Shown: positions 4,231 through 59,500 of the stretch, in pieces
How positions within the stretch are numbered: the first letter of the stretch is position 1
Layout: every line of letters starts with the position of its first letter
Assembly: GCA_965287045.1 (NCBI GenBank)
Contig: OZ336870.1
Coordinates: 150,660,001 to 150,724,000 of the forward strand
Length of the DNA stretch: 64,000 bases
From: Carcharhinus amblyrhynchos
Lineage: Eukaryota
Direction of reading: 5' to 3'
Notes under the pieces: model-generated
What the model saw: only the letters and a program-made list of their open reading frames with translations
Told to the model about the DNA's origin: nothing
The model's database searches: none
Made by a program: the position numbers and the translations under genes

Positions 4231-6590
4231 TACTTACGTGGCGAAAAACTGCAGCAGGCAACGGTGCAGAGGGACCTTGGGGTCCTTGTGCATGAGTCGC
4301 AAAAACCTAGCCTGCAGGTGCAGCAGGTGGTCAGGAAGGCGAATGGGATGCTGGCCTTCATAGCAAGGGGGATTGATTGTGGACAAGTCCCCAGGACTGG
4401 ATGGAATGCATCCGAGGGTTCTGAAAGAAATGGCGGAGGTTATAGTGGATGCATTGGTGGTTATTTTCCAGACGTCGCTGGATTCCGGGGAAGTGCCGGA
4501 AGATTGGAAAACGGCTAATGTTACGCCGTTGTTTGAGAAGGGTGCCAGGCAAAAGGCGGGGAATTATAGGCCGGTTAGTTTAACGTCTGTGGTAGGTAAA
4601 ATGTTAGAATCCGTCATTAAGGAGGAAATTGCGAGGCACCTTGAAGGCAATTGCTTGATAGAGCAGACGCAGCACGGTTTCATTAAAGGGAAGTCGTGTC
4701 TGACAAATTTACTGGAGTTCTATGAGGATGTGTCTAGGGCGGTCGATAGAGGAGAGCCGGTGGATGTGGTCTTTCTGGATTTTCAGAAGGCGTTTGACAA
4801 GGTACCTCATAAGAGGTTATTGCAGAAGGTCAGGGGACTTGGAGTTGGGGGTAGGGTGTTAGCGTGGATAGAGGATTGGTTGTCAAATAGGAGGCAGAGA
4901 GTGGGGGTCAACGGGTGCTATTCGGATTGGCGGATGGTGACTAGTGGAGTGCCCCAGGGGTCGGTGCTGGGGCCTCAGCTTTTTACCATTTATATAGATG
5001 ATCTGGAGGAGGGAACCGAGTGTAGGGTGTCGAAATTTGCGGATGACACCAAGATTGGGGGAAGGGCAAATTGTGCGGAGGGTGTGGAGAGTCTGCAGAA
5101 GGATCTAGATAGGCTGGGCGAATGGGCCAGGAAATGGCAAATGGAATTTAATGTTGGCAAGTGTGAGGTGGTCCACTTTGGTAGGAAGAATGGTAGGAAG
5201 GACTATTACTTACGGGGCGAAAAACTGCAGCAGGCGACGGTGCAGAGGGACCTCGGGGTCCTTGCGCATGAGTCGCAAAAACCCAGCTTGCAGGTGCAGC
5301 AGGTGGTCAGGAAGGCGAATGGGATGCTGGCCTTCATAGCGAGGGGGATTGAATATAAAAGTAGGGAGGTCTTGCTGCAGCTGTATAGGGCATTGGTGAG
5401 GCCGCAGCTGGAGTACTGTGTGCAGTTTTGGGCGCCGCACCTGCGCAAGGATATTTTGGCCTTGGAGGGAGTGCAGAGGAGGTTTACTAGGCTGATACCG
5501 GAGTTGAGGGGGTTGAACTATGAGGAGAGGCTGAATAAACTAGGCTTGTACTCGTTGGAGTTTAGAAGAATGAGGGGAGATCTCATTGAGATGTATAAGA
5601 TGATGAATGGGATGGATAGGATAGAGGTGGAGAGACTCTTCCCACTGAAAAAAGACAGTAGGACTAGGGGGCACAGCCTCAAGATAAAGGGGGGGCGTTT
5701 TAGAACGGAGTTGAGGAGGAACTTCTTCACTCAAAGGGTGGTGAATCTCTGGAATTCTCTACCCATTGAAGTGGTGGAGGCTGCCTTGCTAAATATTTTC
5801 AAGAAGCGGGTTGATGGGTTTTGATAAGAGAGGGGATTAAGGGTTATGGGGAGAGGGCCAGAAAGTGGAACTGAGCCACGACAGATCAGCCATGATCTTA
5901 TTGAATGGCGGGGCAGGCTCGAAGGGCCAGATGGCCTACTCCTGCTCCTATTTCTTATGTTCTTATGAATATAAAAGTAGGGAGGTCTTGCTGCAGCTGT
6001 ATAGGGCATTGGTGAGGCCGCAGCTGGAGTACTGTGTGCAGTTTTGGTCGCCGTACTTACGCAAGGATATTTTGGCCTTGGAGGGAGTGCAGAGGAGGTT
6101 TACTAGGCTGATACCGGAGTTGAGGGGGTTGAGCTATGAGGAGAGGCTGAATAAACTAGGCTTGTACTCGTTAGAGTTTAGAAGAATGAGGGGAGATCTC
6201 ATTGAGACATATAAGATGATGAATGGGATGGATAGGATAGAGGTGGAGTGACTCTTCCCGCTCAGAAAGGACAGTAGGACTAGGGGGCACAGCCTCAAGA
6301 TAAAGGGGGGGCAGTTTAGAACGGAGTTGAGGAGGAACTTCTTCACTCAAAGGGTGGTGAATCTCTGGAATTCTCTGCCCCTTGAAGTGGTGGAGGCTGC
6401 CTCGCTAAATATTTTTAAGACACGGGTTGATGGGTTTTTGATAAGTGAGGGGTTAAGGGTTATGGGGAGAGGGCAGGAATGTGGAACTGAGCCACGACAG
6501 ATCAGCCATGATCTTATTGAATGGCGGGGCAGGCTCGAAGGGCTAGATGGCCTACTCCTGCTCCTATTTCTTATGTTCTTATGTTCTTAT
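4231..6590 (+). mobile_element. 5'-truncated CR1 family A copy (4231-4375 joined to 5966-6590) hosting a nested copy
   Basis: Sequence stops at ...GCAAGGGGGATTG and resumes at AATATAAAAGTAGGG, contiguous in other copies. Tail (TTCTTATG)n at ~6567-6590. Confidence 0.9.
4373..5824 (+). CDS. CR1 ORF2 reverse transcriptase domain (483 aa open frame) of the nested 5'-truncated copy 4376-5967
   Basis: Uninterrupted non-LTR RT motifs from KSPGLDG to FADD to LWNSLP. A 1-nt deletion at ~5820 gives an early stop relative to sister copies. No endonuclease domain. Confidence 0.92.
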   Translation: MIVDKSPGLDGMHPRVLKEMAEVIVDALVVIFQTSLDSGEVPEDWKTANVTPLFEKGARQKAGNYRPVSLTSVVGKMLESVIKEEIARHLEGNCLIEQTQHGFIKGKSCLTNLLEFYEDVSRAVDRGEPVDVVFLDFQKAFDKVPHKRLLQKVRGLGVGGRVLAWIEDWLSNRRQRVGVNGCYSDWRMVTSGVPQGSVLGPQLFTIYIDDLEEGTECRVSKFADDTKIGGRANCAEGVESLQKDLDRLGEWARKWQMEFNVGKCEVVHFGRKNGRKDYYLRGEKLQQATVQRDLGVLAHESQKPSLQVQQVVRKANGMLAFIARGIEYKSREVLLQLYRALVRPQLEYCVQFWAPHLRKDILALEGVQRRFTRLIPELRGLNYEERLNKLGLYSLEFRRMRGDLIEMYKMMNGMDRIEVERLFPLKKDSRTRGHSLKIKGGRFRTELRRNFFTQRVVNLWNSLPIEVVEAALLNIFKKRVDGF

Positions 6591-10560: not shown

Positions 10561-10633
10561 ATTTATAAATGGAATGTATTTTTATTATTAATTTTGTTTT
10601 ATGTAATTAAGTTTTAATATTTTTCAAAAGTTA

Positions 10634-11165
10634 TGTAAGGATATTTTGGCCCTGGAGGGAGTGCAGAGGAGGTTTACTAGGCTGATACCGGAGTTGAGGG
10701 GGTTGAGCTATGAGGAGAGACTGAATAAACTAGGCTTGTACTCGCTAGAGTTTAGAAGAATGAGGGGAGATCTCATTGAGACGTATAAGATGATGAATGG
10801 GATGGATAGGATAGAGGTGGAGAGACTCTTCCCGCTCAAAAAAGACAGTAGGACTAGGGGGCACAGCCTCAAGATAAAGGGGAGGAGGTTTAGAACGGAG
10901 TTGAGGAGGAACTTCTTCACTCAAAGGGTGGTGAATCTCTGGAATTCTCTGCCCGTTGAAGTGGTGGAGGCTGCCTCGCTAAATATTTTTAAGAAGCGGG
11001 TTGATGGGTTTTTGATAAGAGAGGGGATTAAGGGTTATGGGGAGAGGGCGGGAAAGTGGAACTGAGCCACAACAGATCAGCCATGATCTTATTGAATGGC
11101 GGGGCAGGCTCGAAGGGCTAGATGGCCTACTCCTGCTCCTATTTCTTATGTTCTTATGTTCTTAT
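10634..11165 (+). mobile_element. 5'-truncated CR1 family A
   Basis: ORF 10646..11065 nearly identical to other family A C-termini. (TTCTTATG)n tail. Confidence 0.95.
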
Positions 11166-12157: not shown

Positions 12158-12342
12158 TTGTAAGAAGTCTCACAACACCAGGTTAAAGTCCAACAGGTTC
12201 ATTTGATAGTAAACTCACAAGCTTTTGGGGTTTGCCCCTTCATCAGGTGAATGGAGAGTTCTGGCCCCAGACAGAGTTAACGTGATGTTGTGAGACTTCT
12301 TACTGTGTTTACCCCAGTCCAACGCTGGCATCTCCACATCAC
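12158..12342. repeat. Penelope/retrozyme-type repeat, inverted plus direct pieces, with a degenerate hammerhead on minus (~12213-12250)
   Basis: Similar to the 174-bp unit at 36021. Minus strand reads CAC-CTGATGA-A-GGGG-CAAA-CCCC-AAAA-GCTT-GTG. Confidence 0.8.
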
Positions 12343-13194: not shown

Positions 13195-14290
13195 TAAGTG
13201 GCAAATACCATTCACCCCACGCAAGTGCCACTCAATAACCACCTCTAGCAAGAGAGAATCTAACCATTTCCCCATGACTTTCAATCGCATTATCATCAAT
13301 AAATCTCCCACCTTCAATATCCTAGGGGTTGCCATTGACCAGAAACTAAACTGGAACAGCCATAAAACACCATGGTTACTCAGCAGGTCAGTGGCTGAGA
13401 ATTCTGCAGAGGTATTTCAGCTTCCGACTCCCCAATATCTATCCACCATCTACAAGACATAACTCAGGAATGTGATAGAATACTTGCCTGAAATAGTGCA
13501 GCCTCAGCAATATGTAAGAAGCTTAACATCGTTGTGGATAAGGCAGCCCGCTTGATTGGCACCCCATCCAGCACCCTCAGCATCTACTCCCTCCCACTGA
13601 AGGACAGTGGCAACAGTGTGTATTATCTACAAGAGGCACACTACAGCAACTCACCAAGGCTCCTTTGGCAACATCTTCCAAACCTGCAACCTTGAACACC
13701 TAAGGACAAGGGCACCAGCTGAAAGTTGCAAGCCATGCACCACTTTAACTCCGAACTAGGGTGACATAGTGGTACAGTGGCTAACATTATTGCCTCACAG
13801 CGCTAGCACCAGGGACCCGGGTTCAATTTTGGCCTTGAGTCACTGTCTGTGTGGATTTTGTACATTCTCCCCCTGTCTGCATAAGTTTCCTCCTGGTCCT
13901 CTGGTTTCCTTTCATACTCCACAGATGTGTGGGTTAGATTGATTGGCCAGGTTCAATTGCCCCTTAGTGTCAGGAGGATTAGCTGGGTAAATATGTGGGG
14001 TTAGGGGGATAAGGATTGGATGGGATTGTTGTCAGTGCAGGCTCAATGGAGCAAGTGACCTCTTTCTGCAATGTAGAGATCCTATCATACAATGAATGAT
14101 GTTGCGTTCCTTCACTTTCACTGAGTCAATCCTGGAACTCCCTCCTTACCAGGACTGTGGGTGTACCCACATTACATGGGATGCAGCAGTTCAAGATGGT
14201 GCCTCACTATCACCTTCTCAAAGGCAACTAGCGATAGGCAATAAATTCTGGCTTAAGCAGTGATGCCCACATCCAATGAGAGAATAAAAA
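13195..14290 (+). mobile_element. Old L2/CR1-group LINE 3' end, split by a SINE
   Basis: ILGVAIDQKLNWNSH and LSTIYKT motifs. 3' end GGCAATAAATTCTGGC...GCCCACATCC, also seen at ~52450-52500. Confidence 0.75.
13759..14088 (+). mobile_element. HE1-like tRNA-derived V-SINE
   Basis: A-box-like TGGTACAGTGG, B-box-like GGTTCAATT, conserved TGTCTGTGTGGA...TTCTCCC core and CR1-like tail. Confidence 0.85.
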
Positions 14291-23697: not shown

Positions 23698-24783
23698 GAT
23701 TGCAGCACACTGGATGGCCAGATGATTCACCATGTAGTGATCCCAAAGCTATTCTTGCCTACAGGGTATGTGCAATGCCTGGACCTGAACTAGCAGCTGA
23801 AAATATCAGGTTGATTGACAGGACCTCTTAGTCAGTACCATGCTGCTGTTTGCTTTCTTCCTCTTTGGGCATCCAATGCTGGGTAAAGGGCAGATTTTGG
23901 CTGTCTGAAAACAGGAAATCTGAAAGGGAAGGTCAGCTACACCATTAAAAATTAATTATCATGCCAAATCTCGGGATGGGGGCTGTGCTGGGAATTGAGA
24001 ACATGCCCTCACCTTCAATGTTCTCAGTGATATCAGATGCCAGATGCTCATTAGCTGAGAGCCATCTCCACCATAGGGCTTAGAAAATACAGGCATACAC
24101 TGCTAGTTGTGCTCATTTCCATTTTATTCTGTGTCACCTCGTCCTGAAAAAGGGAGGGAAAATGCTGGTGATTTTACAGCACCGTTTTTGTTGCTGTGTC
24201 TATCATAGTTGAATAACTGAAGATAATTGAAGGTAGTGAGATGCAGTGTAAGGCTGCCAGCAATGGTAACTGTGTGATGGAGTATCTGGATATTAGACTT
24301 GAATCCTAAATGGTTGAGAGTGCTGCTGGGTGAGTGATGCTGATGTGCTGCACAAATCAGCAGGAGCAGTTGGTGGTGTGGAAGAAGTTGGTGGCGTGCA
24401 TTGACTGGCATTGATCACCTGGGTGAGGATGTTTTATCCCTTGGGGACTGCTGCCAGGTCAATGAGTCCAGAATCCAGGAGTTGATATCCCTGCCTACCT
24501 ACTCCCTTTCCCTTCTTAGGGTGGTTCTTTAGGGTCTCTTGGCCTCCTGTGGAATCATAAGGCCTCTCCTTCTGTCCACCTCTACCATTAGTACCTCCAA
24601 TGTTGCATCCATCACTCTTATAGATAAATTTGCGTGTTTCCCACGTTGCCCTGTACGGGTGCAGGCAGATTACAAATTGCAATACCTGTGCCAAAATTAT
24701 AGGATCATCGAAACAAAAATCTAATTTTGATCCTATAAACCCTCAGTTCCCACCACAGCACCTTCCTTGTCTATATGGCTTAC

Positions 24784-25640
24784 CTACCAACTGTCTTAAT
24801 CAGTTGAGTCACTGAAGAAGTTCCAGAATGATTGCTGAAGTTTTGTTGTTGTGCATGTAATGTTTTAAAATTTAAAATAAGCAATTTTTTAATCAATTAG
24901 TAAGACACTCTTTGGAGAAAGCTAATTCTACTATTCACTAGGCCTTGAATACAGAATGAGTAGTTTTGAATCAGTTTTTTTTGTTTTTGTTCCAATTCAA
25001 TTAAATCAGTCCAATTCAGATCTCAACAAGTTGAGACATTCACAATCCAAGCTGACAAGACACGGCTCTCACCTCCTGACTTGGGCTTGATCTACATGAT
25101 CCAAGCTGATTGGAGTAGGTATAGGTCCTCCTCCTAAGCTTGATCTCATTTGCATTGTAGCTAAAAGGCCGAGATGCCTGTTTTAAAAATTGCTTCAAAT
25201 GAAGCTAAAATGTAACCTACTGACTTTAACCAAGCACAGATGTCAATACTACACTTGATCTTGGCCAAAAGGCAATTTTATTAGCATTGGGTAAGTACAA
25301 ACTTTAAAGGGTGAATCTCATTAGAGCTTTTAAAAATATCATCAAAGCTATTTTGAACTGTCACATATCAAAACACTTCATGCAGTTATGTATTGATAAC
25401 CATATGCCCTTAACACTCAATCATAAACACTGCATAATTCAATTATTCATTGATGGTGAGAGCATCAGAGCAACATGACAAGGAAGATAACTAATCAAAC
25501 TTATTTTGGAGCTAAGGTAAGAGACATGGTCAAATATATTGATGAGTCAAAATGGCCTTTTTCATTCAAAGTTCTCTCACTTTTTAAATGAGTCAAGATT
25601 GTTCAAGTTTAAGCATAGGAGACAAAGGGCATGCCACTTC
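24784..25640 (-). pseudogene. Pseudo-exon interrupted by the U2-headed element
   Basis: ...VQNSFDDIFKSSNEIHPLKFVLTQC before the insert and LIQNYSFCIQGLVNSRISFLQRVSY*LIKK...TQLIKTVG|GTAAGC after it. Confidence 0.55.
24975..25273 (-). mobile_element. U2 snRNA-headed, poly(A)-tailed short element (SINEU-like)
   Basis: Head GCCTTTTGGCCAAGATCAAGTGTAGTA matches the U2 5' end with 1 mismatch. A second U2-like segment TCTCGGCCTTTTAGCTA...AGATCAAG lies inside. A-rich tail. Confidence 0.75.
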
Positions 25641-25802
25641 TGCTTATGTAGCAGTGGTGCAGACAAAAGAATAATATACAGAATTATAACTGTGGACACT
25701 GGAAAAAGATCAATTATCCACAGTGGATACAATAAGTAGTAGGGTTAGATGAGTTGATTGTATGTGTTTCAATAGTCAGAGGGGTAGATAATGTAGATAA
25801 GG

Positions 25803-26147
25803 AGCAGTGTGGCACAGTGGTTAGCACTGTTGTCTCCTAGCGCCAGGGACCCGAGTTCAGTTCTGGCCTTGGGTCAATGTCTGTGCGGCGTCTGCATGTT
25901 CTCCACGTGTCAGTGTGGGTTTCCTCTGGAAGCTCCGATTTCTTCCCACATTCCAAAAATGTGCAGGTTAGGTTGATTGGCCAGGTTTAATTGCTCCTTA
26001 GTGTCCCAAGATATATAGGTTAGGGGGATGAGTGGGGTAAATAAGTGGGGTTATAGGCATAGGGCCTGGGTAAGATGCTTTGTCAGAGTTGGTACAGATT
26101 CAATGGGCCAAATGGCCTCCTTTTACATTGGAGGGATTCTGTGATTC
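25803..26147 (+). mobile_element. HE1-like SINE
   Basis: tRNA-like head, V-core and CR1-like tail. Confidence 0.9.
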
Positions 26148-27649
26148 CATTCTATGGTAACGTCTTTTGTAGATGTGATACAAAATTTTGAATTATATTT
26201 TGTTTCAAAGGTGCCAGCATGCAGGGAATCTAAGTACGAACATATATTTACATGGAGAGGATGTGCTGAAGACCCTCTTGTACAGTAACCTTTCTATTAT
26301 TCTCTATGATCACATGATTCTAGTATGGGAGGACAAGCAGCCAGAGGTTGTATGAACCAATTACATGGATAGGAGTTTGTTTGAGACTCTGCAAAAGAGA
26401 TATTAAGGAGATAAATTCCAAGTAAGGAACAGCACCTATGTCGTAGTAATCTCTGGATTATTCCCAGTACCTCCTGCTGGCCCAGACAGAGGGGGAGAGA
26501 GAGAGACCAGCATTGTCGATTCAGGAGTTGCTGAAAGGTTGGTGTGCAAGGTTTTGGATTCCTGGGACACTGTGACCTTTTTCACCAGAGAAGATTGTAC
26601 AGATAGGATATCTTGAAAGGACAAGTAGAGCAGAGCAGGAAAATTAAAATTAATTAAGTGATGGGAATTGGAAGGGAAAATACATGTTGTAAATCAAAAT
26701 GTGTGCAAACTAGACCCATGGTTACTACAATAGAAAGGAGGGACTTTGGTAAAGAGAGTGGACAGTTAAAATAATATGGATCTGGTCAAAGAAGAGTAAA
26801 AGATGCAAAACTCTGGTAGAAGTCATCTACAGACCTCTTGGTAATAGTCATGTAGTGAGGATATGTCTAAGTACATAGATCGGTAAAACATGTAACATGC
26901 CAAATATTGTTATAATGGGAAATTTAAACTTCCCCATGGACTGAGAGAAGCAGAAAAATAGAAAAGGCATTTAATTTCTAATAGGCACTTAGGGCAGTTT
27001 TCTGAAAGAATGGGTAGAATCATTTGGACTTGTTGAATGTGGGCACAAATCCTGTAATGGCTGTTAAATCCCACGAGAGACAAAACACAGGATTTGCACC
27101 AGTGAGATCTCAAAATGAAAACCAGTCATGATGTCCGCTCTAGGGACATGGATGGGTCTATAGCCCCTGGGGGTTGAGGGACGTGCCAGGACATTGCCCA
27201 CTGGCAGCTGACAGGGGGCACTGGTAGGAAGGGTTACCCTTCTCCATTGGACGGGAATTTCCCTTTTCCCTTTCTGTGTGTGTGGGGGAATTCCTCCTAT
27301 CCATGGGAGGGGGGAATGTGGGTTGGGGTGTTTCCCTTTTCCACCAGGGATGATCACAATGTCCATGGAGGGGGGAGAGGGTGTTCTTTAACTAAACTTT
27401 AAGATCGGGGCATCTTTTAAAAATAGTGCCCTGATCTCGGATTCTAGGCACTGCTGACTCCTTTAGGCCCCACCCCTCCAGCTGGCTGCGTGATCCTTGC
27501 CAGCACTCTGAAATTGCACAGAGTGTTGTTAAATCAGGTGAGTAAAGGCAATGTGAAGCCAATGAGCTTCAGACGGCTTTTCTCATCTGATCTAACACTC
27601 CGTGCAATTTTGGAGTGATTCTGCCCAATATGTGTTAACACTGACATGT

Positions 27650-30840: not shown

Positions 30841-31112
30841 TAGAACAGAGTTGAGGAGGAACTTCTTCACTCAAAGGGTGGTGAATCTCTGGAATTCTCT
30901 GCCCGTTGAAGTGGTGGAGGCTGCCTCGTTAAATATATTTAAGACACGGGTTGATAGGTTTTTGATAGGCAAGGGAATTAAGGGTAATGGGGAGAGGGCG
31001 GGAATGTGGAACTGAGACACGACAGATCAGCCATGATCTTATTGAATGGCGGGGCAGGCTCGAGGGGCTAGATGGCCTACTCCTGCTCCTATTTCTTATG
31101 TTCTTATGTTCT
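30841..31112 (+). mobile_element. 5'-truncated CR1 family A
   Basis: RTELRRNFFTQRVV... and (TTCTTATG)n tail. Confidence 0.93.
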
Positions 31113-31729
31113 TTGGCCAAGGCTTCTGGAGTGGAGGGCTGATCTTTTGCTCAAAACAGGCATAGAATGCATTGAGGTCACTGGGGATGGGGTGCATTGG
31201 TGCTGACAATTTTACATGCCTTCATTTTGTAGTCTGTTATGTCTTGCAGACCTTGAGAGGGTAAATGTGGGAACACAGAATTGGAGACAACTTTGTGACA
31301 CATATCATGATTGGTTAGGTGATTGAAGACAGTGATAAATTCAAACGGCTGGATGAAAATGGGCCAAGGATTCACAGTGCTCGATTAACCTGCATTCATT
31401 GATGGAAATGCAGTCAGCACACCAACTTCATATTGCCTGCTCATTAGAGCGATCACTGTGTGCAGTAAGCACTATCCACACAGTTCATTGACTATACACA
31501 TCAGCAAGGAGCCAAAAGTCATAGACTGGAACTCTAACACCTTGCCCGCCATGGAATTGGTGCTGGTGAGGGCCCAACAATGGAAATCTCCACTGATATC
31601 AGGCGGGAATTTCCAGTCTCGCCCGACAAGACTGTAAAATCCTGCCCATAATGTCCTTGCACCATTTAAAATGAATACAAAAGTAAAATGCTGCAGAAAA
31701 TGGGAAATCAGAACTTTCCCTTTCTTACC

Positions 31730-33113: not shown

Positions 33114-33157
33114 CTGAAATACAATTTTTCAATATTGTCAAGTTGCCAATGTGGTTT

Positions 33158-33550
33158 CATAGAATCATAGAATCCTACAGTGTAGAAGGAGGCCATCCAA
33201 CCCATTGAGCCTGCACCGACATCAATCCCACCCAGGCCCTATCCCCTTAACCCAAAATACTTACCCTACTAATCCCCCTGACACTGAGAGGAATCTAATG
33301 TGGTCAATCAACCTTACCTGCACAATTTGGTGTGTGGGAAGAAACTGGAGCATCCAGAGGAAACCCACGCAGACACAGGGAGAACGTGTAAACTTCACAC
33401 AGACAATCACCCGAGGAATAGTTATCACATAAAACAGGGCTGGGAAACATTTCTTCTTGGTCCACACAGACAGTGACCCAAACCAGGAATTGAACCTAGG
33501 TCCTTGGCACTGTGAAGCGGCAGTGCTAACCACTGGGCCACCGTGCCATA
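33158..33550 (-). mobile_element. HE1-like SINE (two pieces)
   Basis: Reverse complement of SINE head, core and CTATGATT tail. Confidence 0.85.
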
Positions 33551-35612: not shown

Positions 35613-36078
35613 AATTGCTCAATATTCTCTGACATCTAGAAGAATAAGAAGTGACGTTGAAATGTTAGACACGGTTGACATGGTGGATGCTGAGAGGCTG
35701 TTTCCCATGTCTGGTGTGTCTAGAATGACAGGGCATATTCTTAGAATGAATGAGTTGGTCATTTTGGATTGAGATAAAGGAAAATTGTTTCTCTACCCTG
35801 GAAGCCTGTGGATTCTCACTTGGTGAATATATTCAAGACTGGAATGGATACATATTTGCACACTAGAGGGATCAAGGTATGTAACATGCTGACTATAATA
35901 TTCAAAAATGAAATACTTGAATTTAATTTTTTGTATTGCTATTATACAGTAAATAAAATTTGGGTACTTCTCCCTAGTGTACTTGTTTAAATCTATCTCA
36001 AAAAAGCAACCCATGATGATGCATCTCCACATCATGACTACCATCGACACCGCAAACTGCCAGCTCCAAGCTCCCACT

Positions 36079-36113
36079 CACCTGACGAAGGGGCAGCGCT
36101 CCGAAAGTTAGTG
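36079..36113 (+). ncRNA. Minimal type I hammerhead ribozyme motif, copy 1
   Basis: CAC | CTGACGA | A | GGGGC-AGC-GCTCC | GAAA | GTTA | GTG. Confidence 0.75.
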
Positions 36114-36252
36114 GCTTTTGCTACCAAATAAACCTGTTGGACTTTAACCTGGTGTTGTGAGACTTCTTACTGTGTTAACCCCAGTCCAACACTGGCATCT
36201 CCACATCGTGATTATCATCGACACTGCAAACTGTCGGCTCCAAACTCCCACT

Positions 36253-36287
36253 CACCTGATGAAGGGGCAGCACTCTGAAAGCTAGTG
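36253..36287 (+). ncRNA. Minimal type I hammerhead ribozyme motif, copy 2
   Basis: CAC | CTGATGA | A | GGGGC-AGC-ACTCT | GAAA | GCTA | GTG. Stem II is weakened by CpG-type transitions. Confidence 0.7.
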
Positions 36288-37899
36288 GCTTTTCCTACCA
36301 AATAAACCTGTTGGACTTTAACCTGGTGTTGTAAGATTTCTTACTGTGACAATATAATCCGTGTATAACATAATGTGCAGTTTTCATCTATGTGGTTTGT
36401 GTGAATGTGATTGTCAATTGATGCTGCCTTTGGAGGCAATTTTGCAATATCGATATATATCCACTAAGAATCCTGTTTCTATTACCAGAAATAGAATTAC
36501 CTTAGACTTAATTACAGCTACCAAAAATGAAAGATATTTACCTTGATTTCTCTGAGTTGGGTATGAACTCGAGAGTAGGTGTTAAAAGACAAAGTTCCAG
36601 GGTGATGGCATGTAATTCAGTGGGCTATTCCCTTAACTGATTAACATGCTATATGACCTGGCAATTTTTTTTTCAGAATGGCACAAAGTCCACATTAATC
36701 CTGGTAGGCTATGAACTTGGATAGTTAGACTTAATTTCATGGAATTTTTTTTTTAAATTAAGTACAATGGTGGGAGGCTCTGGTAGCACCCTTCCTGCTG
36801 GCTGGAATGGCGGGAACACTCAGCCAAGTTCATGCTTGGAACTTATTAATTATGCACCTGTGAGTATCAGGCTGAATTACTGGATGGGCTGAGAACTGAT
36901 TGGTCTGGCTGCCATCAGCCAGTGGACTCAAAGGTCCCAGTGTCACATTTAAAGTCCAGTCCAACACGGTCTCCAGTTCACCCATCTCCAACATCTCAGG
37001 AAGCCAGAAGCATAAGTCGAGCAGCATCAAGATGAAAGCTGCTACACAGTTCAGCCACCAGGCTTTCTCAGCTTTGATCTGAAGAGTCTGGATGCAGAGC
37101 ATCCAGACCCTTCTACCCAAGGGACTGTTCCAAGAAGCACAGCAACCTTATGTCTATACGAGGGAGGTAATTGACAAGGAGCTCAGCACAGTTGGGAACC
37201 AGGCCTGACTGAAGACATTGTGATTTTGTACTTTGGGATCCTTTTATGTCAAGCTTGAGCCATTCTCCCACTCAGTGATAGTGTATCACTCTGAGATTAC
37301 CATTCATGTGAGCCTCAGATGAACTCGTCTCTGTACCCTTGAGCGTTGTTAGGGAGATATGTTTTAATATTTATTAGAAGTGTATGATGGAACCATTTCT
37401 AACCTCCCGAACAGGCACAGGAGTGTGGCAACTCGGGGATTTCACAGTAACTTCATTGCAGTCTGAATGTAAGTCTATTTGAAACTAATAAATAAACTTT
37501 TAACTTTTCTTCCTCAAGGGATACCAATGAGTGAAGACAGTTCATCAGCACTGACACTCTAGTGGCATGTGTGTCTCCACAGTGCTAGCACCCAAATCTA
37601 AGACATGCACACTTGTATGAGATCCCTGACCAGGCCCTCATCTTAGTTGTGGCAAAGTTAGCATCATTAGATGGTGGTGAAAGTGTCAAGGTTTGTCTCG
37701 GATCGCTCTTGTTCCCCAGTGGTCTATAAGTTTACAGAATGTGCACATTAACAGGGCACCTCTGACCAAAGCTGTGATAATAACCTAGAGAATCACAAGG
37801 CCAGAATGTGTAAGCCTGAATACAGGCTCGTTCTCTCAATGATTGCATGGATATCTCCGAGATGTCAGAGAATACCTTTGAGGGCTAGGGGTGATGTAG

Positions 37900-39900
37900 A
37901 CATATGACCTCACTTAATGCTATTCTTTCTGAAATCTGTAATTATATAATTTAAGTATCACAGGCACTTCACCCACATCTTCCTTCCTGCTCGGCATCAG
38001 CACGCTCATACGCTGAGCTTCCAAGACCTCTGCATTGTCATCTTCCAATGAACTCTCACCTTCCTCCAGTTTATCCTCTGGCAAGGACTCACCTCCCTGT
38101 ATAGCCAGACTGTGAAGGGCACAGCGCACTGCGATCATGTGGGAAAATTTATATTGGGGCTGAATTTTCGTGAGCCAACTGATCAGTCCAAGCATCTGAA
38201 GCACATCTTCAGACCTATGGTCTGCTCTATAAGTGAGTTGCAAGCAGCATTGTACCTCACCTTGGCACAGCTGTGAGGGCGATGCATTTAACCCTTATCC
38301 CTCAGCAGCCATCCCTATAAATGTAAGAATCATGACAACTCCCAGGGTACCATGCACACACGTGCAATATGTGCTTCCAATAATCTCACACACCAGTTGT
38401 ACGTTGATGGAATGGAAGCCCTTGTGGTTTATAAACATTAGGGGCTGCTGCTATGGAGCTCGAATGGCCACATGAGAGCAGTTTATTGTACCCTCTTGGA
38501 ATTGTGACATGCAGGACCAGGGAGAGAAATCATGAACTCTGGTACTTTTCCTGTTTTTGGGCAGCTTATCTCCATGCACCCACTATGCCCACACATCATT
38601 CACATCCTTCAGGTGCCCAGAATTGGGTACCTTAGGCACAGTGGAGCCCAAAAGTTTAACCGTTAAAAAAATTCCTTGGCTTTTGTACTATATGTATTTA
38701 TTTATAAAGCCTGTCGAAAGCTAAGGTTTCAGAATGATACAGTTTAGGGTTTTGTCAGATAATTACACACAACTTCGTCATTTATGTTGAGAGAGACAGA
38801 GAGAGAGCGGCACGGTAGCACAGGAACTTGGGTTCGATTCCCAGCTTGGGTCACTGTCTGTGTTGGTAAGCACATTCTCCTTGTGTCTGTGTGGATTTCT
38901 TCCAGATGCTCAGGTTTCCTCCCCCAGTCCAAAGATATGCTGGTTAGCTTGACTGGCCATGCTAAAAAATTACCCCTTGGTGTCCTGAGATGTGTAGGTT
39001 AGAGGAATTAGCGGATAAAATATGTAGGGATATGGGGGTAGGGGCTGGCTAGGATTGTGGTTGATGCAGACTCGATGGGCCAGATGGCCTCTTTCTGCAC
39101 TGTAGGTTTTCTATGATTTCTATGATTCACCTTCTGGCAAGGGCTCATCTCCCTGCATAGCCAGACTGGAAAGAGCACAGCACACTGCAATCATGTGAGA
39201 AAGCTTATATTGGGACTGCATTTTATTGAGCCAACTGATCGGTCCAAGCATCTGAAGCACATCTTCAGACCTATGGTCTATATGGACTTATGCTCTGTAA
39301 GGGAATTGCAAGCAGCACTGCACATCACCTTGGCACAGCTGTGAGGGCAATGCATTTAACCTTATCCCCAGCAGCCGTTCCTGTAGATGTAAGAATTATA
39401 GCAACTCCCAGGGTACCATGCACACACATGCAATATGTGCTTCCAATAATCACACAAACCAGTTGTATATTGATGGAATGGAAGCCCTTGTGGTTTATAA
39501 ACAATAGGGGCTGCTGCTATGGAGCTCGAATGGCCACATGGGAACAGTTTATTGCGCCCTCTTGGAAGACCTGAGATTGCTGTGAAACCTGTGAATCTTT
39601 GAGTCTAGCTATCTTCATTCTGAGGAAACCTGACACAATGATGATCTTCCGCTAAAGGATATTGATGATTTTCTTTGTGCATTGGTGTGTGGTGGACTGA
39701 GATGCTGTGTAGGTCCCGTGGTGATCCCTGGAAAGACCCAGAGGCAAAGAAACTGATTGCTGCTGTCACCTTCAAAGCCTCTGGCAGGGGGAAGCCTCCA
39801 AACCCACATGGTGTCAGGTCTTCACAAAAAATGTGGCATATGTTATATACAAGGTCATGGGACAAAGACGGGCATGTCCAGCACTGCCACATACCCATTT
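37900..39900 (-). mobile_element. Decayed PIF/Harbinger transposase with an internal duplication
   Basis: LPEALKVTAAISFFASGSFQG (39605..39898). HVAIRAP*QQPLMFINHKGFHSINVQLVC and ..YPGSCHD occur twice. Confidence 0.9.
38808..39127 (+). mobile_element. HE1-like SINE
   Basis: GGTTCGATTCC B box, V-core and CTATGATTT tail. Confidence 0.88.
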
Positions 39901-55854: not shown

Positions 55855-56509
55855 TATGATTCTAATTATGACTTCTATCTGAAGATATGCCCTGTGATTA
55901 GTCAGGTGTAATGATGCTACCCCTCTTACAGATGTCCTATTGTGTGCTTCAGTCTACAGTATTTTGCACCATCTCATAACAGTACTTGATTTGTATCTGC
56001 ACAGTTGTGACATGATTGAAACCACTTTCTCTAAGAATTTGGTAGAAATTGGCGTGGAGCTAATTGTCATAGTGAAACCAGTATTTCACTATGTCTAGTG
56101 GGTCTGGACTTTATTCTCCAAGCCTACTAGTGTCTCCTCACCCTGCTGGGAGTGGTTCCCTCCAGCAGTGTTTACAACTGCTCCCCCCTAGCAATGAACA
56201 GGTACCTGACCTCGCTGGATGGAAGAAAGGCCATTGAGGCCACTTAGAAGGCTGGGAGTAAGGGGATGTGCCCCTTGGACAGTGCCAGCCTGGCATTGCC
56301 AGCCTAGCACTCTGGCACTGCCCAAGGGGCAAAATGGCACTGCCCACCAGGCACCTTGGCACTGCACACTGGGCAGTTTTAAAAGGGCGAGGCCTACTGG
56401 GGCAATTGGTAGGGGGACCCACTGCTACTCTGCAAGAGGATCTATGATGGAGTGATGGTGTCAGGGCTATCGGGGCAGCCTATCAGGGCTGGCCATCGGG
56501 GTGGAGATG

Positions 56510-59500
56510 TGAGGAATTTAGATGTGGTGGCAGTGACGGAGACTTGGTTAAAGGAAGGGCAGGACTGGCAGCTGAATATTCTTGGGTATAAGTGTTTTAG
56601 GTGTGACAGAGGAGGGTTGAAGAGAGGTGGTGGGGTGGCGTTGTTAGTTAAGGAGCACATCACAGCAGTGCAGAGGGAGGACAATATGGAGGAGTTGGGG
56701 ATTGAGTTGCTGTGGGTGGAATTGAGGAATAGAAAGGAAGAAATTGCGATGCTAGGGGTATACTGTAGGCCACCCAACAGCCCAAGGGCAGTGGAGGAAG
56801 GTATTTGTAGAGACATTTTAGATAGGTGCAGAAAGAATAGGGTGGTTGTAGTGGGTGACTTTAATCTTCCTGGAGTGGATTGGAAGGTGCCTAGAGCTGG
56901 GGGTACTGATGGGGAGGAATTTGTAAAATGTGTATTGGAAGGGTCCTTGGAGCAGTACGTAACTAGCCCGACTAGGGAGGGGGCTATCCTGGATTTAGTG
57001 TTGGGTAATGAGCCGGGGCAGGTAGTTGAGGTTGCAGTAGGCGAACATGTGGCTAACAGTGACCACAAGTCTGTCTACTTTAGGATAAAAATGGAAAGGG
57101 ATGAGTGCCGTCTGAAGGGGAGGGTGCTGAACTGGGGGAAGGCGAGCTATAGCTGGATTAGGAAGGAGCTGAATGATGCTGATTGGGAGGGGTTGTTAGC
57201 GGGCAAGTCCACAGTTGGCAAGTGGGAGGCTTTCAAGGGCAGACTGATAATGTGGCAGGAAAGGCATGTGCGGGTAAAGAGGAAGGATGGGAAAGGCAGG
57301 ATTAGAGAGCCGTGGATCACAGGGGATATTGAGGACTTGGTCAGGAAGAAGAGGGCGGCATATATTAGGTCGAAACAACTAGGAACGGAGAGAGCGCTGG
57401 AGGAATATAGAGAGAGTAGGAGGGAGCTTAAAAGGGGAGTTAGAAGGGCAAAAAGGGGGCATGAAATGGCTTTGGCTGTTAGGATTAAGGATAATCCAAA
57501 GGCATTTTACTCTTATATTAGGAACAAGAGAGTGGTTAGAGGGAAAATTGGTCCTCTTAGGGACAAAGGAGGAGAGCTATGCATCGAGTCTGAGGGAATG
57601 GGGGAGATCCTGAATGAATACTTTGCGTCGGTATTCATGAAGGAGAGGGGTTTGGTGTCTTGTAATGTCTTGGACGGAGCTGTAGATCATTTGAGGGAAA
57701 TATCCATTACGAGGGAGGAAGTGTTAGGGTTTTTAGGTACCATAAAAACGGATAAAGCTCCGGGGCCTGATGGTATTTATCCCCGGCTGCTTAGGGAGGT
57801 GAAAGATGAAATTGCTGGGCCTCTGACGCAAATCTTTGTCTCTTCTTTGGACACAAGTGAGGTCCCAGAGGACTGGAGGGTATCTAATGTGGTACCGCTG
57901 TTTAAAAAGGGCAGTAGGGATAACCCTGGTAATTACAGACCAGTGAGTTTGACATCAGTGGTAGGAAAACTGTTGGAAAAAATTCTTAGAGATAGGATGT
58001 ATAAGCATTCGGAGCATTGCGATCTGATTAGGGATACACAACATGGCTTTGTTCAGGGAAGGTCTTGCCTTACGAATCTGGTAGAACTTTTTGAGGAGGT
58101 GACAAAAATGATGGGCGAGCCGTTGATGTCATCTACATGGATTTCAGTAAGGCGTTTGACAAAGTCCGTCATGGTAGGCTGGTAGAAAAAGTTAAGGCAC
58201 ATGGGATACAAGGACAGGTAGCTAGATGGATTGAAAACTGGCTAGGCAGTAGGAGGCAGAGAGTAGTAGTGGAAGGGTCCTTTTCTGGCTGGAGGTCTGT
58301 CACCAGTGGTATGCTGCAGAGCTCAGTACTGGGACATCTTTTTGTAATATATATAAACGACTTAAAAGAGGGCGTACGTGGTGTGATCAGCAAGTTTGCG
58401 GATGACACCAAGATGGCAGGATTGGCGGATACTGAGGAAGATTGTCAGGTGATATGGCAGGATATAGATAGGTTGGTATACTGGGCAGATAGATAGCAGA
58501 TGGAATTTAATCCTGACAAATGCGACGTGATGCATTTTGGAAGGAATAATGCAGGGAGGAGTTACATGATAAAAGGTAGACCAATTAAGAGTATAGAAAT
58601 GCAGAGGGACCTGGGAGTGCAAGTGCACAAGTCTCTGAAGGTGTCATCACAAGTGGAGAAGGTTGCAAAGAAAGCTTATGGAATTCTAGCCTTTATAGGA
58701 AGGGGTATAGAGTATAAGAGCTGTCGTCTAATGCTTCATTTGTACAGAACGTTGGTTAGACCGCATTTGGAGTACTGCGTCCAGTTCTGGTCACCTTACT
58801 ACCGGAAGGACGTGGAGACCCTGGAGAGAGTGCAGAGGAGGTTTACCAGGATGCTGCCTGGTATGGAAGGACTGGGTTATGAGGAAAGATTGGGAAAACT
58901 GGGGCTCTTCTGCTTAGAAAGACGGAGATTAAGGGGGGATCTGATAGAGGTGTATGAAATAATGAAGGGTATAGATAGAATCAACAGTGGCAGGCTTTTC
59001 CCTAGATTGGGGACAACTATCACAGGAGGTCACAATCTAAGATTGAGGGGGGAGAAGTATAATTTGGAATTTAGAGGAAGGTTTTTCACACAGAGGGTCG
59101 TGGGGGTATGGAATGCGCTACCAAGTAAGGAGGTGGAGGCAGGCACGCTGGACTTGTTTAAGGTTTACTTACATAGGCACGAGTGAAACAGGGATGGAGG
59201 GTTATATAAGACGGTTTTAAAAAGGGTCAGAGCCTCGGGTCGATACTGGAAATGTAATAGTACATGTTAATGTTTTTGTCTCTTTTAATCCACAGGTGTC
59301 AGTCCGCCTTGTTGTCAAATGAGGGGCATGCACACGGTGGGTCGTGCGTAGGCTGCTCTTGGATGTTTCGAGAGTAGCCTAGTACTTCGTGTCGACGTGT
59401 GTGCTTAAATCTGGACCAGCAGATGGGCACCACAACAGCTCAGTGACTATCACTGCTGGCTGTGCAGATACATGGATTTGGGCCAGTGTCTGTGGGAGTT

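Follow-up and report, generated by a model that had tools for sequence, protein, structure and literature searches.

A segment of about 295-300 nt on the minus strand of a Carcharhinus amblyrhynchos contig very likely arose by retroposition, primed at a poly(A) end and truncated at the 5' end. We consider it fairly probable that it is one member of a SINEU-like family of non-autonomous, U2-headed elements for which a Tx1/L1-type LINE supplies the mobility. It is a single copy in the window, by which we mean the whole stretch of DNA analysed (64,000 nucleotides, hereafter 64 kb). The parts of the element and the host sequences on either side of it are as follows.

24975..25273, minus strand: whole element, about 295-300 nt, with two U2 pieces and an A-rich tail
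25246..25273, minus strand: U2 segment 1, U2 nt 12-39, 5'-truncated, 27/28 identical to the Rfam consensus
25241..25246, minus strand: 6 extra nt between U2 nt 38 and 39 in the cmscan alignment, register ambiguous by 1 nt
25213..25240, minus strand: U2 continuation, a 9-mer (25240-25232) like U2 nt 39-47 (8/9), then a degenerate stretch
25178..25212, minus strand: spacer, weakly alignable to U2 as far as the Sm-site region (model position ~113)
25158..25177, minus strand: U2 segment 2a, U2 nt 4-23, 18/20
25147..25157, minus strand: 11-nt insert splitting U2 segment 2, containing ATGCAAAT (25155-25148)
25094..25146, minus strand: body unit 1, beginning with U2 nt 24-31 (AGATCAAG); predicted hairpin
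25040..25093, minus strand: body unit 2, a diverged tandem copy of body unit 1
25021..25036, minus strand: short inverted repeat, 7-pair stem with a 4-nt loop when folded
24975..24991, minus strand: A-rich tail, 15/17 A, of which the last few may be host
24942..24978, plus strand: left half of a candidate exon, host flank after a weak AG acceptor (score 1.2)
25271..25297, plus strand: right half of the candidate exon, host flank with a GGTAAGT donor (score 5.0, GT at 25291)

A preliminary description of this DNA had identified the head as the U2 5' end, including the branch-point recognition sequence GTAGTA, and had placed a second U2-like segment about 100 nt downstream; both identifications are borne out. 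GTAGTA lies inside U2 segment 1 and ends at 25247, equivalent to U2 nt 38, and a 17-nt motif of the head has a single, exact match, where 0.03 matches are expected even with 2 mismatches. For U2 segment 2a, 0/100 shuffles contained any match at 3 mismatches, and segment 2 resumes past the 11-nt insert with AGATCAAG (U2 nt 24-31) at 25146-25139. Both U2 5' segments lie on the same strand, each is a single match far above shuffles, and the distance between the two occurrences of GCCTTTT is 104 nt. U2 (RF00004) was also the best Rfam match on 24500-25800 (25087-25281, minus strand, 24.3 bits, E=0.017), with the E value becoming 0.86 when the scan covers the whole window; at the gathering score of 46 bits, against the 24.3 bits of the element, RF00004 has no match in the 64 kb. 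Rfam scans of the element region gave no U1 match. Both U2 nt 1-11 and the U2 3' half are absent from the element, and the first 2-3 nt of U2 segment 1 could equally be host sequence, contributed through microhomology.

Similarity to U2 resumes beyond nt 38, past the 6 extra bases—9-mers of the nt 39-47 type occur at a density of 34 per 128 kb, which by hand calculation gives ~0.003 within 10 nt of the head. The nt 38/39 junction is the target site of Keno and Utopia in the published sections of PMC4640811 and PMC6136364 that treat them, and the 6-nt insert coincides with this site and interrupts it. The footprint of a Dada DNA transposon was considered as the source of the 6 nt and rejected: the insert duplicates no flank, and the targets given for Dada, at least in the relevant part of PMC3706591, are U6, U1 and tRNA. 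Homology of the spacer to U2 as far as the Sm-site region is not established, since the similarity vanishes once the head is left out, with no U2 match at E up to 10 in 24960-25245. Within the 11-nt insert, ATGCAAAT is what we take to be the octamer motif of snRNA enhancers, a candidate role; the window has 6 octamers where 5.2 are expected, which is no enrichment, and the chance of one in 300 nt is ~3%. By eye, nothing resembling an upstream snRNA promoter was seen at the expected distance.

The body, previously described as unique sequence, is instead a tandem pair of 53/54-nt units, each headed by the U2-derived AGATCAAG; the two are identical at 35/55 columns, a score that 0/2000 shuffles reach. 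Divergence across the element is uneven, the U2 pieces differing at 3/56 positions and the body units at 20/55 columns. Under uniform decay, the probability of 3 or fewer differences in 56 is 0.006 at 18% and 0.024 at 15%, both optimistic values in that the segments were picked by best match. This unevenness suggests that the remodelling probably predates the insertion, with the proviso that under 10% decay a count of 3/56 is unremarkable (P=0.18). The inner part alone, from 25177 to the tail (~200 nt), already consists of a U2 head, a body and poly(A). There are also short resemblances between the two halves of the element: 25215-25226, counted with the spacer, matches body unit 2 at 25071-25082 on the minus strand in 11/12 positions, and TTTTAGCT is common to 25210 and 25166. 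These matches are a hint of ancient dimerisation, each half being one former unit, a relationship that is not significant in unbiased tests—comparison of the halves gave 14/1000 with the U2 motifs included and 181-411/1000 otherwise, colinearity beyond the U2 motifs gave 262/1000 and 181/1000, and MAFFT produced no clean alignment of the two.

The A-rich tail and the lack of a clear target site duplication (TSD), both noted earlier, stand on closer inspection: of all 17-nt stretches in the 64 kb, 24975-24991 alone has 15 or more A or T, and no direct repeat of at least 5 nt is shared between 24951-24985 and 25261-25300, while the scores of longer flank repeats are reached by 97/500 and 101/200 shuffles and are not significant. 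A 7-bp hairpin reported at 25021-25036 is indeed present but is not above chance, with 52 such inverted-repeat sites in the window (overlaps counted), or 0.24 per 300 nt. Four oligo-T runs of 4-5 T lie inside the element. ARAGORN found no tRNA genes in the window, and hence no tRNA head, but this is a weak test, as the decayed heads of the tRNA-type SINEs close by escape ARAGORN too. The seven ORFs of the element, among 40 ORFs run against Pfam, gave no significant match, no coding remnant and no reverse transcriptase (RT) or endonuclease.

On the U2-sense strand only, 25275-25213 is predicted to fold as a long hairpin in which U2 segment 1 pairs with 25213-25240 as the 3' arm (minus strand z -3.14, 6/1000 shuffles; plus strand z -0.89). 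By eye, 12/12 positions pair where the U2 consensus, read in that register, pairs at 7/12; each of the five changes of the 3' arm from that consensus turns a mismatch into a pair (rough p ~0.03). We regard this predicted fold-back as suggestive only, since 2.3% of 300 random 63-nt control windows reach z -3 or better and RNAalifold on an alignment of the three hairpins gave no pairs, no consensus structure and no covariation. The fold of body unit 1 is not strand-specific, with z -2.76 on the minus and -3.09 on the plus strand, and that of body unit 2 is not significant (z -1.07).

By the account in PMC2912911, target-primed reverse transcription (TPRT) of poly(A) RNA leaves as its marks a 3' A tail, a missing 5' end and a short stretch of microhomology where the 5' side joins. 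A route to the present structure would begin with a polyadenylated, Pol II-type RNA as template, which a protein of the L1/Tx1 clade that accepts poly(A) would reverse transcribe from a nick within A/T-rich target DNA; synthesis may then have halted at U2 nt 12, with joining through 2-3 nt of microhomology to leave a blunt insertion. Before this copying, the template would have grown over a long time by repeated addition of U2 5' ends, or by dimerisation, together with internal duplication, a history that implies a propagating lineage. The order of U2-piece addition and duplication is one that we infer; the simplest history would be that a short U2-headed RNA was copied repeatedly and then gained a further U2 piece or dimerised. 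We would place the putative partner LINE in the Tx1/L1 clade, given that the tail is poly(A), that the site looks blunt and that there is a precedent in crocodilians, described below. It is conceivable, on folding predictions and the position of the 6-nt insert, that the head RNA folds back to hide its branch-point and U6-pairing region and that the insert removes the Keno/Utopia target site. The present copy, which has no U2 5' end, is probably dead. The preliminary description had suggested either a SINEU-like family or a non-autonomous partner of a U2-targeting LINE; of these ideas, a retroposed insertion with U2-derived 5' parts and a SINEU-like layout holds up, but the partner idea in its simple form, with the element sitting in a U2 gene, does not, since U2 nt 39 onward follows the head rather than the tail and the first 11 U2 nt are missing.

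The most serious competitor to a family copy, unlikely in our estimation but deserving of weight, is a one-off chimeric retrocopy or decayed U2 pseudogene, in which a LINE RT acting on a poly(A) RNA made one or two template switches to U2 and the product then decayed in place. The element is the only copy in the 64-kb window, snRNA chimeras and tailless snRNA retrocopies are known L1 by-products in the accounts given within PMC4494074, PMC5322556 and PMC2912911, and cmscan threads 25281-25172 through U2 positions 1-118 much as it would a decayed U2 5' half. Such an event, however, requires two U2 captures, two inserts within U2 and a duplication decayed to 64%, while 53/56 U2 positions and the A tail have remained intact, and one-off U2 chimeras are rare in human according to the section of PMC4494074 on them. 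In a more limited form, the outer head alone could be a one-off addition onto an older U2-headed element. We find it improbable that the sequence is instead what is left of a LINE from the Tx1/Keno or Utopia lineage, be it a 5'-truncated 3' UTR with U2-like sequence in it or a LINE reduced by internal deletion to its U2 head and its 3' end. The high-identity head does stop at U2 nt 38/39, the Keno/Utopia site, U2 heads are described for some Tx1 families of crocodilians in PMC4494074, and the 20-bp TSDs of reptile Utopia, as given in part of PMC4640811, would carry the 5' junction to about U2 nt 58, near where similarity fades. Against this, U2 nt 39 and beyond was not seen 3' of the tail—the target 9-mer has a single match in the vicinity, just after the head, where U2 continues instead—and none of the seven ORFs of the element gives a coding remnant, although a very short 5'-truncated copy would be without one anyway. 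The internally deleted form is, moreover, functionally close to the SINEU-like explanation that we prefer.

We give hardly any credence to a functional RNA at this position, whether a variant U2 gene that still functions or, on the plus strand, a guide RNA (scaRNA or snoRNA) directed against U2. The plus strand does carry the complement of U2 nt 4-39 and overlaps a weak snoU2-30 match (13.1 bits, E=5.2), but there is no Rfam match at gathering score, no C/D boxes were seen by eye beside the 28-nt complement, and the A tail lies on the U2-sense strand. A complement of 28 nt exceeds the length of guide elements. A functional U2 is further opposed by the missing nt 1-11 and 3' half and by a score of 24.3 against 46 bits.

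Returning to the SINEU-like family copy, we searched for relatives of the element within the window and beyond it. No second copy was found in the 64 kb by blastn (word size 7), Smith-Waterman or nhmmer, the best Smith-Waterman score of 71.5 lying within the range of 69.5-79.5 for 5 shuffled elements. At a density like that of SINEU-1, taken as 7,700 copies (PMC4494074) in a genome of roughly 2 Gb, only ~0.2 copies per 64 kb are expected, and the lone copy is therefore weak counter-evidence to a family. As expected for prokaryotic and related collections, GTDB genome contigs contained 0 matches to the body pattern and 0 to the head, a plasmid collection gave no match to the element, and 5 short matches to its A/T-rich end in a phage collection (E=0.09) are taken as chance. 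The 54-aa ORF of the element had no relative among 5.8 billion proteins, a weak test for non-coding DNA. A Tx1/L1-type partner was looked for in the window and none was recognised, the matches of 15 ORFs being to generic RT and endonuclease.

The surrounding window is free of N and rich in retroposons, with LINE fragments carrying RT and endonuclease domains and at least 8 copies of a tRNA-type SINE, one of them at 25809-26150 and others at 13769, 15610, 18163, 20395, 33160, 33870, 38820, 59480 and 61670. Five copies of this SINE were aligned, and each is 12-16% away from a consensus built on the others; the copy at 33155-33550 has a ~65-nt insert with partial duplication. The SINE presumably resembles the V-SINE HE1 of sharks and rays, and the LINEs resemble, in our judgement, the CR1 type, neighbours that would fit a shark-type genome. 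HE1 is listed for sharks and rays in the corresponding part of PMC3747384. The local CR1-type elements terminate in short tandem repeats, unlike the poly(A) of the U2 element. Young LINE 3' fragments, 94-97% identical and ending in an 8-nt tandem repeat, lie at 1-1530, 4231-6590, 10631-11165 and 30841-31113; in 4231-6590 several of them stand in direct succession, with an RT domain at 4364-5821. What is left of a long LINE ORF2, split into three ORFs and still showing endonuclease and RT domains, occupies 56413-59186 on the plus strand. Other repeats include a 174-bp tandem duplication at 36021-36348 (90% identical), with related short repeats at 12160, 49451 and 63893, and a ~430-bp direct repeat (38077-38501 and 39133-39567, 88% identical) on either side of a SINE copy.

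It had also been proposed that the element interrupts a pseudo-exon and for that reason is an insertion. The insertion is upheld by the U2 matches and the A tail, but the pseudo-exon has no significant protein match, and the case for insertion comes from the U2 head and A tail rather than from the exon. Removal of the element can yield a stop-free exon of 54 or 57 nt, and the donor at 25291 is one of 21 unmasked plus-strand sites scoring at least 4.8; an open frame across the join is little evidence, since in-frame joins are stop-free for most breakpoints. Pfam searches with the 40 ORFs, 6 and 9 read-through frames and the exon read-throughs had a best E of 0.017, outside the flanks, and PDB searches had a best E of 0.95. 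Homologue searches, with 2 and 4 candidates, returned none at E up to 10, and a search of 1.84 billion proteins gave 2 matches, both to repeat-rich proteins that tblastn did not place in the window. A supposed resemblance to membrane proteins of the Dispatched/Patched kind was set aside, having no search support and needing a phase shift between candidate exons. The flanks are single-copy in the window, and at the one site examined there was no significant inverted repeat. Upstream of the insertion, 24739-24855 (plus strand) is a stop-interrupted frame with a local, non-significant mucolipin-3 match (E=5.4), and the A/T-rich region 24760-25800, in which donors lie at 25291 and 25517, is perhaps the relic of a compact gene that has decayed.

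SINEU were described from crocodilians, with none found outside them in the scope covered by PMC4494074, and that paper describes them as having gained U2 pieces repeatedly, with blunt or truncated target sites, partial duplications, poly(A), oligo-T runs and heads that do not begin at nt 1. In five points of SINEU anatomy, our element has a U1/U2-derived head, poly(A), a non-coding length under 500 nt, repeated snRNA pieces, and oligo-T runs without a tRNA head. We nonetheless do not file it as a SINEU member, as many copies of one structure is the defining criterion and there is one copy in 64 kb. The nearest relatives in layout are within SINEU-1 of crocodilians (Kojima 2015, PMC4494074), particularly 1C, 1E, 1F and 1H with their added U2 heads or partial duplication. 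The element shares with SINEU-1 its serial U2 5' pieces, non-U2 body, poly(A), length under 500 nt, oligo-T, a head not starting from nt 1 and the lack of a clear TSD, and differs in its cartilaginous-fish host, and in having no detected U1 piece and no Mariner target seen at its single site; the SINEU preference for Mariner-N4_AMi is common to Tx1-Mar in the passages of PMC4494074 on target sites. Like SINEU-2 and SINEU-3 it is made of snRNA fragments, and SINEU-2 has blunt or truncated target sites, but SINEU-2 is U1 plus U2 and SINEU-3 an internally deleted U2, whereas the present element combines two 5' U2 pieces with a non-U2 body of ~150 nt. Keno (Tx1 clade), Utopia (NeSL clade) and the U2-headed Tx1-Mar resemble it in a U2 match ending at nt 38/39 and a poly(A)-type 3' end; unlike these LINEs, it has no ORF and no U2 nt 39 or beyond downstream of the tail, lies outside a U2 gene and has the target site broken by 6 nt. 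With snRNA chimeric retrocopies and tailless retropseudogenes it has in common a truncated snRNA joined to other sequence by a LINE, in contrast to which it shows two U2 captures, internal remodelling, a tail and no TSD.

A vertebrate transposable element review (PMC5381603), PMC5786205 and PMC4758252, in the parts that bear on the subject, cite only the crocodilian case of SINEU. No report of a snRNA-headed SINE in sharks was found in the literature searched, mostly outside subscription journals and Repbase Reports, and the family may already be deposited in Repbase or Dfam. A bolder interpretation, which we hold to be quite doubtful, draws together the head hairpin, the 6-nt insert and the octamer: that snRNA-headed SINEs arose independently in cartilaginous fish with an RNA shaped by selection, the branch-point region being locked in the fold-back hairpin, the broken target site barring the partner LINE, and the octamer acting as a snRNA-type enhancer for its own or the next tandem copy. 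The transcription of SINEU was left open in the pertinent part of PMC4494074, U2 promoters lying upstream of the RNA, and this interpretation, if true, would answer in testable form the question of how transcription of SINEU-type elements comes about.

On balance, we regard the U2-containing insertion as real and very likely retroposed; it probably belongs to a SINEU-like family, none of which was found for this lineage in the literature searched. Were it single-copy, it would be an ordinary chimeric pseudogene. If it belongs to a family, a consensus, master loci and conserved positions would open the promoter question to test; and if that family is a second, independent one in a distant vertebrate lineage, snRNA-headed retroposons would be a repeatable outcome of Tx1-type biology.
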